NCBI GenBank assembly: GCA_038087875.1
Contig: CM075989.1
Coordinates: 3,224,001 to 3,288,000, forward strand
Direction: 5' to 3'
From: Malacoraja senta
Lineage: Eukaryota
DNA length: 64,000 bases
Both the position numbers and the translations under genes were made by a program. The notes below the pieces were generated by a model. That model did no database searches and was not told the DNA's origin. It was given only the letters and a program-made list of their open reading frames with translations. This document shows, piece after piece, positions 11,769-61,549 of the stretch. How positions within the stretch are numbered: position 1 is the stretch's first letter; each line of letters opens with the position of its first letter.

Positions 11769-13894
11769 GAATACACCCTGATATTCATGGATATAATACT
11801 AAAGACTCATATAATAAAATATCTTTATACGCGGATGATATATTATTGTATATTACAAAACCTCAAATCACTATACCAAATATATTAAATTTAATTGAAG
11901 ACTTCGGATCTTTTTCTGGATATAGAATAAATTTGGAATAAAAGTGAAATTATGTCAATAAAACCGAAAGATTCAACACATCTTTTAAAATTCCCTTTTA
12001 AAATAGCTACAGAAAAATTTAAATATTTGGGAATCGAAATTACCAGAGCATATCAAGGTATGCTCAGGGCAAATTTTGACCCCCTACTTAATAAACTGAA
12101 TACATTAATTAAATTCTGGAAAACGCTTCCGATGTCTTTAATAGGCCGAATAAACGCAATAAAAAATGATCTTTTTACCACAAATTTTATACCTATTTCA
12201 ATCAATTCCTATATACTTACCTAAGAAGTTTTTTAAAAAACTCGACTCAGATATCACTAATTTTATATGGGACTATAAATCACATAGAATACAAAAAACC
12301 CATCTGAACAAATCTAAAGTATTGGGGGGTCTAGCACTACCCAATTTTTGTATTATTATTGGTCAGTAAATATTAAAAACATGATTCAACTGATGGATAA
12401 CTCCGCCCAGCAAGTAGACTGGATTGTAATGGAGAAAGAGGATTGCTCCTCTAGAAACATTGGAGCGATCCTCCTCTCTCCAATGAAATTGAATAACATA
12501 AACTATAATAAGAACCCAATTATTCATAGTACAATCCGTATTTGGAAACAAATAAAACAAAATTTAAAATTAAGAAACTTATCACTTTTATTACCTATAG
12601 TCAATAACCCTTCGTTTAGTCCTTCTATTATAGATAAAGCTTATACACAATGGGATAGACTAGGAATTAAAACGCTTGGTGACTTGTATGAAACTGGAAA
12701 ATTACTTTCATTTCAACAATTACAAATAAAATATAAACTCGGAAATAATCAATATTTTAAATACTTTCAAATATGCGACTATTTGAAAAAATATATAAAA
12801 GATCATCATAATAACCCAGCAGATGTATTGGACGAGGCAATGCAGACAAAAGCGGAATCAGCAAACTTAATATCATATTTGTACAATATTATCTTAAATG
12901 TACAAATACCATCTACGGAGGGTATCAGAAGAGACTGGGAACAAGAGTTAGCTATTAAAATTTCAAAGGAAAGTTGGAATGAATACTTATTAAAAGTACA
13001 TAAATGCTCGATTAATGTAAGACACACTTTAATACAATTTAAAATTTTACATAGATTATATTATTCGAAAACTAAAATTCATAAAATTTTCCCAAACGTA
13101 TCATCTATTTGTGATAAATGTCAATCCCAAGAAGCAACTATAGCGCACTCATTTGTCTTCTGTACAAAAATTCAAAAATTTTGGAATGAAATTTTTGAAA
13201 TCTTTACAAAGTTATTTAAAACAAGACTGATACCCAAAGCAGAATGGATTATCTTCGGAATAACGGAAGATGATCCAGAACTAAATGTGTTTCAAAAGAA
13301 ATTAATGGATTATGGGTTAATAACTGGAAAAAAGCTAATTCTAAAATTTTGGAAGAAGGCTCCAATACCAACTATAAATATGTGGATTTCAAATATGTTT
13401 GAAACACTACACCTTGAAGAGATAAGACTCCTCCTAGCAGGTAAACCAGATCACTTCCACCTGACGTGGTCTGCATTTATAGAATTATTACAAACATAGG
13501 GTGCAAAAGTACTTTAAAAAAATAAAAAATTGAGGTCGGGTAAGGGGGGATGATAGTTGAAGAGTTGGTATGTCCTATTTACGTGATGCTCAAAAAAAAA
13601 AACATTTGTTTTTCTTTTTTTTCTCTCTCTCTTTTCTTTTCTTAGGGCCTATTTCTTAACTCTTTTTCTTTTTGTTTTTAATTTCGCTCTCATAGGGTCC
13701 TCGTCCTTTTTTTTTGTTGTTACATTTTCTACACTTTTCTACACTTGCACTTTTCCTTCACTTTCTTCTCTCTTTCAATCTTTTCTTTCTTTAGTGTAAA
13801 AAAAATAAATAAAGGGAGTACATTAATTGTAAGAAGATATAAATGACGAGTATTAATGTATGTGGCTGTGATGTAATGTACTTCTAATAAATAA

Positions 13895-23231: not shown

Positions 23232-24450
23232 TTTCTTTCTTTTAAAATCTTTTTATTGATTTTTTTCCAAAAAACTAAAACAAAAATAAAACATAAAAAA
23301 CAGAGCAAAAAGAATAATGAAAAACATAACAATGATATTGATACATAGGGATCAGGATTACATTAATAACAGGTATAACCTAAATATGAGTCCAGTGTCA
23401 AAATACACAATGAATATAGACCTATGTAAATATGTAAATATAGTTAAATCTTTAAAAAGAAACTTATAAATGTTTAAAAAAAGCAAAGATGAAAAGACAA
23501 AAAGAAAAAGAAAAAACAAAACCCCTCTAAACTAAGAATTAAATTTGTTTCATAAAACAGCAAAACCGAATCTGAACTGATAAATTCAACAATTTAAGTC
23601 TGTTTGTCATCGTCCGTTCCACTCTATGTAGGTAAAATATTTTTTATAACGGTTACAGAGGGAACAATTTATGTTGTATGAAAATGTTCAATAAATTTTC
23701 CCCAAGTCTTATCAAATTTAACCAAGGGTTCAACAATGTCACTTCTGATTTATTCTAAATTTAAACATGATATAGTTTCAGAATACCACTGGAGTGTGGT
23801 TGGAATCTTTCCAATAAAATAAAATAAATCTTCTGGCAATTAATGTGGTAAAAGCAATCAACCGATGGGCGGAGCGGGACAAATTAATAAAATCTAACAT
23901 TGGTAACCCAAAAATTGCAGTTATAGGATGAGGTTGTAAATCTATACCTAAGACTACCGAAATAGTATCAAAAATGTCTTTTCAATATTTTTCCAAAAGA
24001 GAGCAGGACCAAAACATATGGGTCAGTGAGGCCACTTCAAAGTTACACCTATCACAGGTAGGATTTATATGACCATAAAAAGGAGCTAACTTATCTTTTG
24101 ACATATGAGCTCTGTGAACCACCTTGAATTGTATCAGAGTGTGTCTTGCACACATTGAAGAGGTATTGACTAATTGAAGAATCCTCTCCCATTTCTCTAT
24201 AGATAAAGACATTTGGAGTTCTCTTTCCCAGTCATTCTTAATTTTATCAAATGTATCTATTTGTAATTTCAAAATCAACTCATAAATAGTCGTTATTAAT
24301 CCTTTCTGATAAGGGTTCAACTGTAAAAAAAATTCCAAAATTTCGGGTTGATGTGGTAGCGGAAAAAGGGGTATGGTAGCCTTCAAAAAATGTCTAATTT
24401 GTAAATATCTAAAAAAGTGTGAATTAGGTAAGTTATATTTATTGGAGAGT
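23232..24450 (-). mobile_element. L1-clade LINE 3' fragment
   Basis: ORF 23982-24386 with LIQFKVVHR and CDRC..HMFWSC zinc finger; T-rich tail on the plus strand. Confidence 0.88.
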
Positions 24451-24894
24451 TGTTCTATTGTCTATTGTCTATTGTCCCAACTACACAAGTCCCACCTGCG
24501 TGCGTTTGGTCCATATCCCACCAAACTTGTCCTATCCATACACCTGTTGGGATAATCCCTCAATTACTTGTTCAAGAAGGAACTGCAGATGCTGGACAAT
24601 CGAAGTTCAAGAAGGAACTGCGGATGCTGCGGCACCCGCTGAGTTACTTCAGCATTTTTGTCTACCCTCAATTACTTCCTCTGGCAGCTTGTTCCATACA
24701 CCCACCACCCTTTGTGTGAAAAAGTTACCCCTCAGATTCCTAATAAATCTTTTCCCCTTCAATCTGAACCCATGTCCTCTGGTCCTCGATTCCCCAACTC
24801 TGGGCACGAGACTCTGTGCATCTAAATGATTGATGGACATTTATTCTCACGCCTCATTAACATGCCATTGTCTCTTGTCAGCCCTTTCGGATGA

Positions 24895-54062: not shown

Positions 54063-54730
54063 AGGCCATTTGGCCTGTCAAGTCTATTCCACCATTCAAT
54101 TACGGCTGATCGACCTCTCCCTCCTAACCCATTCTCCAGCCTTCTCCCCGTAACCCCTGACACTCGTACTGATCAAGAATAGTAAGATTAAACGAGAACT
54201 TACCAGTTTGAAGTTTGATCTTTATTTTATGAGGAGTTACGTTGGTGATTACGTGAAGAAGACCCGTCAGGGCGCATGCGCGTCAATCTTCAAAGCAGCG
54301 GTATGAAATCACAGACAACACAATAATTGAAGTAACATATTAAGATGATCAACATGAGAACTACCATTATGACCTTTTTTCTATGAGAGAGGGTTGGGCG
54401 TGGCAGGCACGTAATCACCAACGTAACTCCTCATAAAAGAAAGATCAAACTTCAAACTGGTAAGTTCTCGTTTAATCTTACTATTTTACTTCGGAGTCAC
54501 GTGAGTGACTACGTGAAGATTTTAAAGCTCTGTGATTTTTATGCCGCAGATCAAAATCCCGGCTTCTCACTGCATCGATTGACTCCGAGTATCATCAATA
54601 GTGTTGTAAACATGACATTACATAACATGCAAAAACAAACAGTTTTATTTTTGGTCATAAAACAACCAATAAACCCTCTTAATTTAGGGGCAACAAACGA
54701 AACAGAATGAAAGAGTATTGAAAACAGACT

Positions 54731-55690
54731 TTAAACAATAGCAACAGCACTCAATATTGAGTTGGCAAACAGCCCTCCATCGGCAATCGGCCGATGGTAG
54801 TATTGCTGAAACACAAGTTCATTTTTCCAACCTGCAGCTTTTAATATATGGTCGATGGGAACGTCCATCGCCCTGACCGCGGATGTTGCTACTGCGCTAG
54901 TGGAACGAGATGTAAGCACATAAATGTTAATTCCTGCCTGAACCAACTCTTGCTTTAACCATGTTGAGATAGTCTGAACTGCCACTCTTTTATGTTGGCT
55001 TCTTGTAACTGACAAATAATCCTGTTTCTTCTTGTCTTAAAGCCCTTGTGGCTTCAATGTAATGTAAGAAATGTGTCCTTACACATAAACATGGAGCTGT
55101 AGGATATGCTGAGAACACAATCTTAAATCCTGTCACACCTGGCCTGCTTTGTTTGAGCAGGTCATAAATATAAAACAGAACATTCTCTGTAGTCACTTCC
55201 ATTCTATCTAACTGAAGTTTTTGCAAAGTCTGCACTCTCTGTACTGACACCAATGCCATTAGCATAGCCAATTTCATGGTTAATTTTAACAAAGTTATAG
55301 ACGTGACAGGGACCCAATGACAAAGCATGTTAAGAACAACGCTTACATCGCAGATTACCACATACCTAGGCTTAGGCAGTTTGGAATTAAAGATTCCTTT
55401 CATCAACCTAGATATCAGAGGGTGAGAACCTATACTTTGTGTCCGTGTACCTATTACAAGATATGCCGACAAAGCATTTCTAGCTGTATTGATAGCACTG
55501 TAGCTAAGAACCTCATCATAATAAAGTGTAGATAAAAATCTAACACATTTTCAATAACTACAGTATCATATTGAATATTCTTTTGAACACAATATTGTTC
55601 CCATTTTTTACATAAGTCATATACTGCTTTTGAGTACTCTTTCTCCAGGCTGCAGTGAGTATATCCACCATTGGCCTAGAAAGTCCTCGA
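54731..55690 (-). pseudogene. DIRS tyrosine recombinase (frameshifted)
   Basis: HPLISRLMKG..PKPRY, KLAMLMAL..QR, ILKAAGW....FQQYY. Confidence 0.9.
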
Positions 55691-55719
55691 CCAATGTAAA
55701 ACATTCTTAAAAACCTGCA

Positions 55720-56960
55720 AATTAACAGATCAATACGATCACATAACGGATGAACTTAACGCATTACTGGATGCTCCAGCAAATTCCTACTGTTTGGAAT
55801 CAGCAAAAGGGGGTTGGATCGCTATCTGTAACATCAAAGGGAACCATGGTTGAATCGGGCAATTTGGTATCACCAAAACCCCTGAAGCGGCATCCTGCTT
55901 GATTTCCTCAAACACCCATGTGATTCATATAAGCAACTGCTGCAGTGTTGTCTATTTGGCACTGCACATGCAAACTACTTTTGTTAGTGCCATAAGCCTT
56001 GAGTCCATAAAATACTCCTGGTTAATTCCCCATGTTTGCAGAAGCAATGTCCATCTGTCTCCACAGCTGGATCTTGTATCAGTAGCACCCTACCCAAGTG
56101 CTCTGACATCTGTCTGCAAAATCATGGAAGCTTGGTCCAATAACACTTTGGAACTACTAGTGGACACATGCTGAATCCACCATTGTACATCAGCAACAGC
56201 CTCTATTGATAGAAGCATAGGTCTATTATAATGACCCCAATGTATCCTCAGTGCTTGTTCCTTTGACCTTTGTAATTGTAGATAATAAAGTGGCCACTAT
56301 TGAACTGCTGGAAATGCTGCCAGCAATTTCCCCAGCAGACTCGTCACCTGGCTAATTGAAGGCTGTGTGTCAGCAATTAACTTGATACAGCTCTTAATTA
56401 GCTCTACCCTTTTTTGCCTCGGCAAGGTCACAATCATGTTGATTAAGTCTATTGTGAACCCAACTAGTCAATTTGTGTCACAGGTATTAATTTAGATTTC
56501 ACTGGATAGCTTAAGAAGCCCAATTTTTTAAAAAGTGGTTTTTACCAACTGCCACTGATGCTTCAGCTGTTTCCTTTGATTGTCCTACAATCAAGATATT
56601 ATCTAGATAAGCCATCCAGCTGAATTTTAAATCTTCTATCCTGCAAATGAACAGACACTGAATCCGCATCTTGAAGATCTCCCCAAATGTTTCCATCTTA
56701 AAATGTCTATACCGTACAAAAAGGTTTAAGACTATTCAGGTCCAGTATAATTCTGCATCCCCCATCCTTTTTTGGTCTGGGAAAGATATTGGACACAAAC
56801 TGATGGCTTTGGTAAACTGCCTTAGCAATTACACCTTAATTACATAAGCTTGCAAGTTCCACCTGAACTTCCAATTGTTCAGTGATACTGAAGTCAAACT
56901 CCTTTTTGGAACATGTTGCATGGGTAAATCAGAATTTGCATTAAGCTTTATTCAAAACCC
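55720..56960 (-). pseudogene. DIRS RT, RNase H and methyltransferase-like remnants with deletions
   Basis: FVSNIFPRPKKDGGCRIILDL, HFKMET, AYLDNILI, ILQTDV, IDNTAAVAYMNHMG, GVLVIPNCPIQPWFP. Confidence 0.88.
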
Positions 56961-56971
56961 TTCAATAACCT

Positions 56972-58248
56972 TCAGTATAAACATATCTGAGGTATCACAT
57001 TAGATCTGTCTACATGAGAACCAGACCCACTTACCTCCTTACCACCTGGCATTCTTCCCCGGCCTTGAGCTGGATATCTCACCTTCCCTGGCGCTGCTAC
57101 AGCCGAACGCCAACTGCGCTGCATCGTAGCTGGACTCGTCCGTTGCCCGGACCAGTCTCCTGGCTTATAGGGATACTTCCGCTTTAGTGGATATGTGGCT
57201 GCTGGCTGCTTAATCAAGCCCACCATCTTGGCCTCCTCCTCCTCCAGCTCCTTCACCTGCTTTGCGAAATCCTCGCCAAACAGATTTGCCAGTTGCACTG
57301 TGCCAGGCTGGCAGAGTGAAGCATATTTAGGGTTGATGGTTGGTCTAAAAGCATTCTTGTGGAGGCAGTTGATCTCAAAGTGGGCACTCCACAATAGCGC
57401 CACACCTTTTGTTGTAATTCGTCATGGCCTCTCCATCCACCATCCTGGCAAAGCTCGTTATGCCAGATGCCAGCAACTTTAAAAATATGCTGGAGCTTCA
57501 CCTCCTCCTGGGCTCTCATTTGTATGCCCATCTTGCCCCAAATCTTCCTGTTCCCAACAGGAACTTTTAACAGGCCACAGTTTATTGGGGCTTCATGCTT
57601 CCTTACTGGCTCATCCATTGTCAGCTCCTGTAGCTGGTGTGAGACTTGGTAATTTATGCTGGTGGTAAGTTCCTCACCCAGAGGATCACCAGCGTCCGAC
57701 GACATGGCAAACCGTGCTGCACACGGTGTCAGCTCTGGCCGCTGCATGCCCTCCCGTTGGAAGTCATCGTCGGACTCAGGGTCAGAGCATATCTGCCCTT
57801 CTGCACTCACCTCTTGCAAAGAGGGTGCTTTCAAGCAGGCCTCTACTAGGCACTGCCGGGGGAGCCTTCCCGACGGCCTCCCGCCCTCACAACTCCTCCT
57901 GGAGTGTGGCTTTGTGGAGCAGCCCCTGTATGCGCTGCTCCTTTTGGATAACCGCTGGGGAACGGTATCCTGTCCCCGACGGGACTCTCCTGGCCCGACT
58001 CTGCGGAGTCAATGGCCCTGACAGACTTGGCTTATGCCTACCGCCCGACTGGCGTTGGCTGTGTACCCGGCTGGGCACTTTGCCAAGTCTGTCGCCGCAC
58101 CGCTACCGGCTTGCGACTCCCCACAGGTGACAGGCTGCCTTTCAGAGACTGCGCTCCCGCAGCTCTCTCTCTCCTTGTCCGTAGCACGCCTGCACCTTGA
58201 TGATTTTCCTTGTTCCTGCATTGTGGGGAAAATAAAATACAGCAACAA
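56972..58248 (-). pseudogene. DIRS gag-like ORF (frameshifted)
   Basis: FRPTINPKYASLC...LFGEDFAKQVKEL motif; lies 5' of RT. Confidence 0.7.
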
Positions 58249-58429
58249 TTTCTCTACTTTTTTTCTAACTCCTCCAAAGTCTCCCCGACTTTGGTGGAGC
58301 TGTAACTACTCACCTGCAGGAGGAGCTCCGTCCTCCTGCTGCCGGGCGCCAATGCGTCAGACGTAATGACACGCATGCGCCCTGACGGGTCTTCTTCACG
58401 TAGTCACTCACGTGACTCCGAAGTAAAAT

Positions 58430-58970
58430 CTGTCAATCTCTGCCTTAAAAGTATCCATTGACTTGGCCTCCACAGCCTTCCTTGGCAAAGGATTCCACAG
58501 ATTCACCACCCTCTGACTAAAGAAATTCCTCCTCATCTCCTTCCTAAAGGAACATCCTATAATTCTGAGGCTATGACCTGCGGTCCTAGATTCTCCCACT
58601 AATGGAAACATCCTCTCCACATACACTCTATCCAGGCCTTTCACTATTCGGCAAGTTTCAATGAGGTCCCCTCTCACCTTCTAAACTCCAGCGAGGTCAG
58701 GCCCAGTGCCATCAAACGCTCATCATAGGTTAACCCACTCATTCCTGGGATCATTCGTGTAAACCTCCTCTGGACCCTCTCCAGGGCCAGCACATCCTTC
58801 CTCAGATATGGTGGCCCAAAATTGTTCACAATGCTCTCCAATGCGGCCCAACCTGCGCCTCATAGAGCCTCAGCATTACATCCCTGGTTTTGTATTCTAG
58901 TCCTCTTGAAATATATGCTATAATTGCGTTCACCGATTCAACTTGCCGATTAACTTTTTGGGAATCCTGG
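58430..58970 (-). mobile_element. CR1 LINE 3' fragment hosting the DIRS (continues at 54062-54180)
   Basis: RGDLIET..KGLDRV, FFSQRVVNLWN; the flanks rejoin as CAAGAAT-CTGTCAATC. Confidence 0.9.
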
Positions 58971-59243
58971 ATTCCCATTTAGAAAATATGCATTCTGCAC
59001 AGGTTGCACGCTGAGTTCATTGGCTGCAAAACACCTTCAGTATAATCATTGGTCTGACATGATCATTGTGATTCTGCTGCTAAACACCATCCTCAGTCAG
59101 TAATGATAAGGTACACGGTGCAGTGAACGAGAGTGGTGTAGCGTGAATCTAGCATAAGTCACGGCTCTGTGCTCCTGCAGTGGAGAGAGGAGAGGGTTTC
59201 AGAGAGCCTGATCTCAGGTCTTTCTGCAACAATCCAATGGACA

Positions 59244-60722
59244 TCTCTATAATACTAAATCTCTTTGTCTTGTTTGTGGCTGTGTGTGTGTGTGTGTGTC
59301 AATATCTGGTTAGTTCAAATTTGCTTCCAAAACGCTAGGCCACAGCCTTCCCATTTTCACACATTCTACTCATAGTTTTCCCGTCGAGGCGATAAATATC
59401 TTCGCGTCACATTCACTAACACCCTCCCCCTCCCTCTCTACCCCCCCCCCCTCTCTAGGGATTGAAGAGGGAGGGAGAAGAGGAGGAGGAGGGAGTGCTG
59501 GGGGATGAGGAGAAATGGGCCGCGCCTGCTCAGTTGGGGGCTCTGCGTGAGTGGTGCAATATTGTGTTGGGGGAACGGGTGAGTGGTGGAATCTTGTGTT
59601 GGGGGAGCAGGCCCAATGGGTCCGCACTTGGTCTGGTACAGAACTAAAACTGATCTTGTGCTCTTCTGGTTTGCACGTTTTTTCTATTCGTGTAAAAACG
59701 GTACGCGATAGCGCTACAATTTTTTGCCAGGTTACTCACCATCCCCCTGTGCTGCGAGTGCAACAGGTTTCCTTGGTGGTATATTGGAAAAAGTTATCGA
59801 GGTTTAAAAATCTTAAAAAACGCGCGTGCCCAGGTTCCTTCAGTCAGCGCCACGCAGATTGGTCTCTTCTCCTGTCAGTCAATGTCACGGTCGGGTTGGT
59901 GACGCCCCTTCCTGCCCCACCGGCGACGGCCTGTCCCGCCTCACTCACAAACTCCACTGGGCCCAGTGGAGGCCCAGTGGAGGCCCAGTGGAGGCCCTGG
60001 TCCTGTCTCTCTCTCCCTCATCACTCACCCCTCTCCCCCGCCCGCCCTCTGTGGCAATGGCGGTCCCGTCTACCCGTCCTCCCGGGTCCGTCTCCTCTGT
60101 CGCCGCTATTGCGGTAACTCACCCGCACGGCCTTCTCGGAGGAGATCTTCTCCACCAGCTCATTGAAACTCGTGGTGCCCACTGTGACGAATACTGACAA
60201 CATCCCCCCTCCCACCCCCCCAGCGGCGGCAGCAAGCAGCCAGGCAGGTAGGCGGGTGGGCAGGGAGGGGACGGGCCGATAGGCGGCTGAGCCGGAGTGG
60301 GCAGAGGGAGGGAGGGAGGGAGAGTTGGGTTGCAGGGTGGCCGAACAGTTTGCGCGGAGTTTGAGTAACTCACACGATACAAACTGGTCCAATCATCAAG
60401 TCAACTGGATCTAAACCACAGCTAGCAATGAATGACCTGTGGAGGAAGGAACTGCAGATGCTGCTTTCTATGGATGGAGTGAGGGAGTGACTGAGGGTAG
60501 GGGAAAGGAGAGGGGGGAGAGGTGAGGGAGAGATTGGGGGAGGAGGAGAGGGGAAAGAAGAGGGAGGGTGAAGAGGAGGAGGAGGGAGTGCTGGGGATGA
60601 GGGGAAATGAGCACAGCTGGGGGCTATGCGTGAGTGGTGGAATATTGCATTGGGGAACGGGTTGCGTTGGGGGGACCAGGCCTCCCGTGTGACAGGAACC
60701 CAATGGGTCCCACTTCATCTAG
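59244..60722 (+). mobile_element. Tandem non-autonomous Helitron
   Basis: A|TC 5' end; two homologous 3' ends with a CCC-AAT-GGG hairpin followed by CTGG|T (59633-59637) and CTAG|T (60719-60723); no TSD. Confidence 0.75.
60123..60203 (-). pseudogene. ALG13: ALG13-like first coding exon, probably Helitron-captured
   Basis: ATG..MLSVFVTVGTTSFNELVEKISSEKAVR (27 codons) then GTGAGT donor; matches the ALG13 N-terminal VFVTVGTTSF motif. Confidence 0.85.
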
Positions 60723-60739
60723 TGACACTATAAAAGCAG

Positions 60740-61310
60740 GCATGTAATGTTGAAGCTCTATGAGGCACTGGTCAGAACGCATTTTGCATTATGAGCAGGT
60801 TTAGGCCCCATTTCTGAGGAAGGATGTGCTGACATTGTAGAGGGTCCTGAGGAGGTTTACGAGAATGATCCCAGGAATGAATGGGTTAATGTATGACGAG
60901 CGTTTGACGGCACTGGGCCTGGAGTTTAGAAGGACGAGGGGGGACCTCATTGAAACTTACCGAATAGTGAAAGGCTTGGATAGGGTGGATGTGGGGAGGA
61001 TGTTTCCACTAGTGGGAGAGTTCAGGACCAGTGCACAGCCTCAGAATAAAAGGTCATACCTTTAGAAGGGAGATGAGGAGGATTTTCTTTAGTCAGAGAG
61101 TGGCAAATCTGTGGAATTAATTGCCATCAATGGGTATTTTTAATGCTGAGGTTAACAGATTCTTAATTAGTAACGGTGTCAGGGTTATGGGGAGAAGGCG
61201 GGAGAATGGGGTTGATAGAGGGAAAGATAGATCAGCCATGATTGAATGGCGGAGTAGACGATGAGCCAAATGGCCTAATTCTGCTCCTATAATTTATGAA
61301 CTTATGAACA
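60740..61310 (+). mobile_element. CR1 LINE 3' fragment
   Basis: RRFTRMIPG, RGDLIETY, 3' UTR. Confidence 0.88.
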
Positions 61311-61549
61311 TAAGAGAAACACGACAAAATGGAGACACAATAGTGCCCAGAACATGGATGAACATCCAGGGAATTACTGCTTGCAATGGGCATAAATGCC
61401 AGATGACACAGTGAACAAACCTTTCAAAGGACAGAGCATGAATAGACGACAATGGAAAATATTTGGCCTTAATACACTCTCCTTCCTCAGCACCAGAGAA
61501 TACTCACTGTCACATTGTACACTACAAGGATGACCCAGTGTATATGCAC

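Follow-up and report, generated by a model that had tools for sequence, protein, structure and literature searches.

In bats, a Helitron architecture that combines a host gene's promoter, first codons and splice donor has already been described and tested (PMC4778049). In vesper bats, HelibatN3, with approximately 1,000 copies, holds the promoter, 5' UTR, first six codons, splice donor and intron start of NUBPL (PMC4224331; PMC4778049), and it is described as having promoter activity and as trapping exons both in cells and in the animals (PMC4778049). HelibatN217.1 carries TMBIM4's 5' UTR, its first exon and a portion of intron 1, in reverse orientation to the Helitron (PMC4224331), and, in Xenopus laevis, 19 coding fragments are reported as captured by Heli1Xen1, 17 of which come from the 5' ends of genes (PMC12001565).

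In the stretch of 64,000 nucleotides analysed here (the window), the 5' flank, start codon and splice donor of ALG13 are present between Helitron ends, as in promoter/exon-trap Helitrons of the HelibatN3 type. Both elements are non-autonomous, reached high copy number and contain the 5' flank, first codons, donor and intron start of a housekeeping gene; they differ in gene and lineage, in the number of codons (27 here, six in HelibatN3), and in that the present element is known from its sequence, whereas promoter activity and trapping were assayed for HelibatN3. The TMBIM4 fragment of HelibatN217.1 resembles the ALG13 fragment in that it takes in a first exon with some of intron 1 and is reversed relative to its Helitron, but it spans 223 bp against approximately 630 bp here and was accompanied by a sequential capture of TACC3, with no such second capture identified in the ALG13 subfamily. 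Heli1Xen1 is also a single family with several captured coding fragments; however, it is a young family of 64 insertions in total, whereas we observed hundreds of copies per cargo, with ~4-7% non-CpG divergence. In agreement with the initial annotation of this DNA, which knew of no such case in cartilaginous fishes, we found no report of a Helitron with ALG13, or of a capture of this kind in cartilaginous fishes, in the literature covered (mostly open-access articles). With this element, bats and Xenopus are joined by a third vertebrate lineage in which Helitrons have captured the 5' ends of genes.

An ALG13 first exon between Helitron ends

The exon-1 copy, MLSVFVTVGTTSFNELVEKISSEKAVR, is a 27-codon minus-strand frame that starts at ATG 60203 (60203-60123) and is read directly from the sequence; the start codon, open exon and donor (60122-60117) given by the initial annotation were thereby borne out. 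The first coding exon of human ALG13 has 27 codons. The copy is identical to exon 1 of the single ALG13 gene found here at 23 of 27 residues (85%; E 1e-11 in a tblastn search of the peptide against 120 kb of contig C7), matches positions 2-23 of Pfam PF04101 weakly and below the cut-off (E 0.027), and gave no match in the PDB when searched as a 27-mer peptide. ALG13 exons other than exon 1 are absent from the window, as had been noted by eye: a tblastn search with three full-length proteins from shark, skate and ray matched only 60203-60120. The cassette was also said to be CpG-rich, of which the GC-richness holds (63%), but the CpG observed/expected ratio of 0.55 is like that of the whole window (0.53) and below that of the parental gene (0.83).

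Table 1. Features of the two adjacent Helitrons, in positions of the window.
Feature	Position	Strand	Remarks
Short non-autonomous Helitron A	59244..59636	+	5' end A/TC, 3' hairpin and CTGG, from the sequence
Non-autonomous Helitron B with ALG13 fragment	59637..60722	+	1,086 bp
Family head, ~280 bp	59637..59915	+	Common to subfamilies with differing cargo
Captured start of ALG13 intron 1	59916..60116	-	Parent ~+88 to +293; far boundary approximate
Splice donor GTGAGT	60117..60122	-	Intact, identical to that of the parent, from the sequence
Copy of ALG13 coding exon 1	60123..60203	-	27 codons, open frame
Captured ALG13 5' flank	60204..60437	-	Probable 5' UTR with proximal promoter
Inner 30 bp of a common repeat remnant	60438..60467	-	Remnant at parent -365 to -305
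Family tail	60468..60722	+	GA-rich stretch, subterminal repeats, hairpin 60695-60710, CTAG 60719-60722, then T

The Helitron context proposed for the exon was correct, but the extent given to it, 59880..60470, was too narrow, since the element is Helitron B over its full length, with Helitron A as a second one (Table 1). Helitron A contains no ALG13 cargo and sits head-to-tail ahead of Helitron B, and its 3' part is repeated in the 3' part of the latter. Helitron B starts without the initial TCTA of the family 5' end, directly against the 3' end of Helitron A; the 5' TC end is present in Helitron A (59243/59244) and in the family. The terminal hairpin has a predicted energy of -3.4 kcal/mol (DNA parameters) and one mismatch, and forms a perfect 7-bp stem in many sibling copies. 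No terminal inverted repeat was found in the element, and the ALG13 exon is antisense to its carrier. Starts that are devoid of TCTA and come straight after the CTAG of another element were noticed at many copies (window 59637, L004, L072, L074, L083 and L119, and further L122, L126, L129, L132, L133, L138 and L141), and other copies follow TCTA/TCCA microsatellites. Among other repeats in the window, we noticed ~3.8 kb (54547-58349, minus strand) with frames resembling what we take to be a DIRS-type tyrosine-recombinase retrotransposon, a name that Pfam did not give, and AT-rich L1-like LINE fragments at 12318-13499 (plus strand), with a zf-RVT match, and at 23241-24472 (minus strand).

The exon is present in many copies. 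A DNA search with it returned 58 matches (40 scored of 473 candidates), a search with the exon-1 peptide returned at least 150 (150 of 150 scored, from 350 candidates), and a 15-mer with one mismatch allowed was found 288 times versus 76 in the control. The number of exon-1 copies is estimated as ~340 from the 15-mer; counts of the head give 300-530, with an uncorrected 95% range of 100-620. Sixty loci were examined, which, after nine duplicates were dropped, left 51 distinct ones, including the window and two near-identical pairs; these were selected by the exon and another 30 loci by the family head, both sets being samples of the copies. The 3' end was located within 1.5 kb in 41 of the 51 loci, with CTAG in 29 of the 41 (the other ends being one-base variants) and T as the next base in 38. 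The head is visible in 37 of the 51: 11 have clean TCTA starts, 10 follow a microsatellite, five follow the 3' end of another element and 11 are variants. Where both ends are defined (n=29), the elements span 0.6-2.1 kb.

The phylogeny of the copies is star-like, and the indels relative to the parental gene are common to the copies. Nine of the 51 form a subfamily with three parent-like bases, likely the older one, and the window copy belongs to the main subfamily. The family is common to two other organism labels, since many contigs in the DNA runs of both cover the cassette region. In addition, one contig in each of these runs joins the unique left flank (~96% alike) to the first 22-24 bases of Helitron A, a length below the 31-letter threshold, which no more than hints that the other two organisms may share the insertion of Helitron A.

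The parental gene and the route of capture

The parental ALG13 gene lies on contig C7, a contig other than that of the window, with exon 1 at C7:5532565-5532645, exon 2 at C7:5535748, exon 3 at 5539990 and further exons that reach residue 1048 of the 1,130-residue skate protein. It was pointed out by a PF04101 match at C7:5539990 and examined in twelve C7 stretches (120 kb). Its exon 1 also has 27 codons followed by GTGAGT, and exon 2 opens in phase 0. An ALG13 exon on C7 is identical to a Leucoraja protein, by which the host is skate-like, and conservation of the ALG13 N-terminus extends from sharks to mammals. With a 164-residue shark ALG13 as query, 18 matches were obtained in the genome (150 of 315 candidates scored): one each for exons 2, 3 and 4, on C7 only, the remaining matches being exon 1. 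In intron 1, just past the captured stretch, there is a 33-bp GC-rich minisatellite of 8.9 units (L051:2919-3212). Six long single-frame PF04101 matches, likely a UDP-glycosyltransferase gene cluster, were observed at C13:3.65-3.96 Mb, 0.4-0.7 Mb from the window.

The initial annotation had considered that a unique exon splicing to ALG13 exon 2 downstream would make the window copy the genuine gene, with Helitron pieces inserted around it. The open frame and intact donor agree with a true first exon of ALG13 or of a paralogue, but the probability of this reading is practically negligible, as the later exons are missing from the window and exons 2-4 are found only on C7, and as the matches to exon 1 number at least 150, with Helitron ends around them in most of the loci examined. 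The further copies and the parental locus that the annotation supposed elsewhere were both found, the latter at C7:5532565. A functional ALG13 gene in the window was rejected, since exons 2 onward are not in cis.

The proposal that a Helitron transduced the first exon of ALG13 along with its 5' flank and the start of the intron, in antisense orientation, is upheld by the element ends, the copies and the parent elsewhere. The stretch shared with the parent extends from -334/-335 to ~+270-293 relative to its ATG, which amounts to ~630 bp of the ALG13 5' end. The start at -334/-335 is found in the window copy and in five of the seven head-selected copies with a BLAST match to the parent, the other two being partial. 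This start falls inside the repeat remnant, which extends further upstream at the parent only. Because the capture starts inside this remnant and the copies hold just its inner 30 bp, the direction was from gene to element; the conserved ALG13 N-terminus, together with the partial remnant, therefore identifies the gene as the donor. Since upstream DNA, the repeat remnant and the intron are all included, capture took place at the DNA level, and capture via mRNA was rejected on the same grounds. Two separate captures of ALG13 were considered and set aside, given that the nine-copy subfamily is nearer to the parent at three sites only and shares the other diagnostic changes, for which one capture is simpler; Lys24 of the copies as the ancestral state was dropped on the grounds of the same subfamily.

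We propose that a single DNA-level capture of the ALG13 5' end may have occurred by template switch or gap fill, which would have inserted host DNA after the family head and ahead of part of the tail, and that the product would have spread at first as the smaller subfamily, which is nearer to the parent, and later as the main one, to which the window copy belongs. With modest confidence, we favour template switch or gap fill over read-through between neighbouring elements, because there is no spent 3' end between head and cargo and no second head between cargo and tail, because the head is joined to the tail in relatives that lack a recognisable gene cargo (L122, L141 and L144), and because the 40 kb around the parent exon show neither the head nor the tail motif, none lying closer to it than 41 kb. 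By read-through, a Helitron in intron 1 would have run past its terminus, over exon 1 and the promoter, to a second element upstream (compound transposition), with the internal ends deleted later and the donor allele lost. Internal 3' ends, head-to-tail pairs and compound arrays are frequent in the family, and read-through is reported for HelibatN539 (PMC4224331) and for Helraiser in cells (PMC4778049), so that this route is plausible, if somewhat improbable: it requires two further deletions and left no relic within 40 kb of the parent exon, although relics are also described as lacking in 26 cases in bats (PMC4224331).

Decay, selection and transcription of the copies

The ATG is kept in 37 of the 51 copies and the GT in 46, and 31 keep ATG, frame and GT together, an upper estimate, given that similarity was the basis on which the loci were chosen. 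In the five head-selected copies with a readable exon, ATG and GT are present in all, and four have gaps of 3 or 12 bases. The number of synonymous changes is 37 in 27 DNA-selected copies, from which two near-duplicates and the window copy were left out, versus a neutral expectation of 46.8 +/- 5.3, and six in the five head-selected copies versus 7.6 +/- 2.1. A synonymous excess (42 versus 26.9 expected) was seen in 21 protein-selected copies, and is due to their having been chosen by protein similarity. Purifying selection on the copies was thus rejected as a selection artefact, being apparent only in the protein-selected set. The window exon differs from the family majority by seven changes, three non-synonymous and four synonymous, the latter against ~2.4 expected in this small number (n=7). 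Bases private to this copy are found in codon 2 (TTG), codon 14 (AAT) and codon 27 (CGG).

In the window copy, 11 of 38 ancestral CpGs are gone by deamination and the non-CpG divergence is 4.1%, the family medians being 26% CpG loss and 5.8% non-CpG divergence (34 well-aligned copies; a further 17, with apparent divergence above 12%, were excluded). Relative to the majority of the copies, the parent differs at nine of 44 CpGs, and by 10.5% elsewhere. The CpG loss suggests that the copies are methylated in the germline, and it disfavours a live CpG-island promoter at the window copy. We conclude that this copy is very probably one of several hundred non-autonomous Helitrons with ~630 bp of the ALG13 5' end in antisense, and an unselected, methylated passenger rather than a working promoter.

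The initial annotation also proposed that the cassette could seed chimeric transcripts. This is structurally possible, since 31 of the 51 sampled copies, a biased set, keep ATG, frame and GT, but such a role appears unlikely for the CpG-decayed window copy. Since the cassette faces against the element's own direction, its role as a trap supplying a start codon and donor would be limited to genes on the minus strand of the element. Four sequencing runs were aligned to 58960-61530 at 80% likeness, with matches swamped by the flanking LINE. In the polyA run X23, which comes from another organism and of which ~6% was read, depth over the exon is ~2, mostly with the first mate on the plus strand, and the exon reads are mostly in the ALG13-sense direction, with reads of parent and copy not distinguishable. 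RNA depth in X23 is 0 over 58960-59217, a flank covered by the DNA run of the same organism label. In this shallow run, the 15 splice joints listed of 1,086 include none at 60123, and none of the 24 loose read ends listed of 5,285 lies at that position. No exon-carrying sequence recorded as RNA was present among the matches listed. One search for a fused protein gave no candidate, and a second one, with 24 candidates, gave 10 matches, all covering 95-100% of the 40 residues and accompanied by PF04101; both are weak tests. No host gene was recognised around the window copy, either by eye in the unmasked segments or by an Ig-domain motif scan over 124 kb, and Pfam searches of 11 frames named only retroelement-like pieces.

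Co-option of the window copy, by which the captured promoter would fire and the donor at 60122 would splice to a downstream acceptor, for example 59175/59174 on the minus strand, was also considered. The start codon, reading frame and GTGAGT are undamaged; on the same strand, 948 nt downstream, there is an in-phase, pyrimidine-rich AG outside maskable repeats, which would give a 52-codon in-frame fusion; and HelibatN3 is described as behaving in this way in cells and in vivo (PMC4778049). Nevertheless, we regard co-option as quite improbable: the CpG loss of the copy is at the family median, the RNA depth of X23 is 0 over the flank with the candidate acceptor and no joint or loose end is listed at 60123, no host gene is recognised nearby in the segments covered and no fused protein was found among the 24 candidates, a weak test. 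The window copy alone is unlikely to matter functionally. The stretch 59020-59180 (minus strand) itself comprises an acceptor-like tract and the AG at 59175/59174, followed by a 25-codon frame with the word VTYARF; it is unique, ~96% conserved in the DNA runs of the two other organisms, and has no RNA depth in X23.

Other cargos and autonomous partners

The head motif was matched 1,796 times, versus 0 in the control, and the cargos diverge past the CCCCTTCC motif. Among the first 30 exact head matches, all on contig C1 and selected without regard to cargo, eight carry ALG13 (five with a readable exon), nine cargo B, two cargo C and two cargo D, the remaining nine being short, interrupted or single. 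Cargo B is a GC-rich, exon-like stretch that ends in GTGAGT and is sense to the element, with 1,849 first-look candidates; it received no name from Pfam or PDB, and its parent was not among the 30 loci examined (40 scored, of the 1,849 candidates). It was observed at L130 (element bases 290-700), L121, L123, L125-L127, L131, L134, L135 and L147-L176. Cargo D, a GC-rich stretch with a TATA-like word at element bases 300-750, was noticed at L120 and L142, with a related motif at L144, and has no Pfam match.

In cargo C, we recognised a partial SAC3D1 exon together with its splice donor, in sense orientation to the element and behind the same Helitron head. Over a 49-residue piece of this cargo, identity to a SAC3D1-like protein of a skate reaches 82% (E 5e-17); the piece matched 95 places in the genome, and all three matches to PF03399 over the cut-off are Helitron copies of this cargo. 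The parent was not among 30 loci of this assembly; SAC3D1 residues 286-444 gave no match among 95 scored, and an exon-2 query did not find it among 17 candidates. Because of this, the direction from SAC3D1 to the element rests on the Helitron ends and on the orthologues. Atlas and PDB searches with a less useful reading frame of the cargo as query gave nothing. Loci with this cargo are L208:1440-1830 (plus strand), L207, L209, L136, L143 and L177-L206, from 446 first-look candidates.

We tentatively suggest, with more doubt than belief, that a skate family of at least 1,800 copies may have repeatedly loaded host exons with their donors (ALG13 in antisense, SAC3D1 and cargo B in sense) between a fixed head and a shared tail, scattering hundreds of cassettes, some of which might now start or splice lineage-specific transcripts. 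If so, a genome-shuffling episode like that of bats would have taken place in cartilaginous fishes, and the fixed loading point would make the 5'-capture bias testable. Several independent cargos joined near the same point of the head constitute a natural series on the mechanism of capture and its 5' bias. In practice, the hundreds of sequences that resemble exon 1 can mislead gene annotation for ALG13 and SAC3D1 in skates, as well as the design of probes and the mapping of reads.

The genome also contains 112 matches to PF14214, in frames of up to 1,766 residues with a PIF1 helicase domain. In five of the six coding RepHel loci examined, the 3' end is the same as that of Helitron B, several times in each, and the 5' starts are similar. 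These shared ends, and the analogy to Helraiser (PMC4778049), suggest that the ALG13 element may have been mobilised by RepHel elements, which would have amplified it in trans. RepHel Helitrons, possibly young, were observed at L099-L102 and L105-L110; their frames reach 1,302-1,766 residues in three of five loci, and the elements are ~95% alike and occur in arrays with several internal 3' ends. At L101, a LINE-like piece apparently interrupts the end of the helicase.
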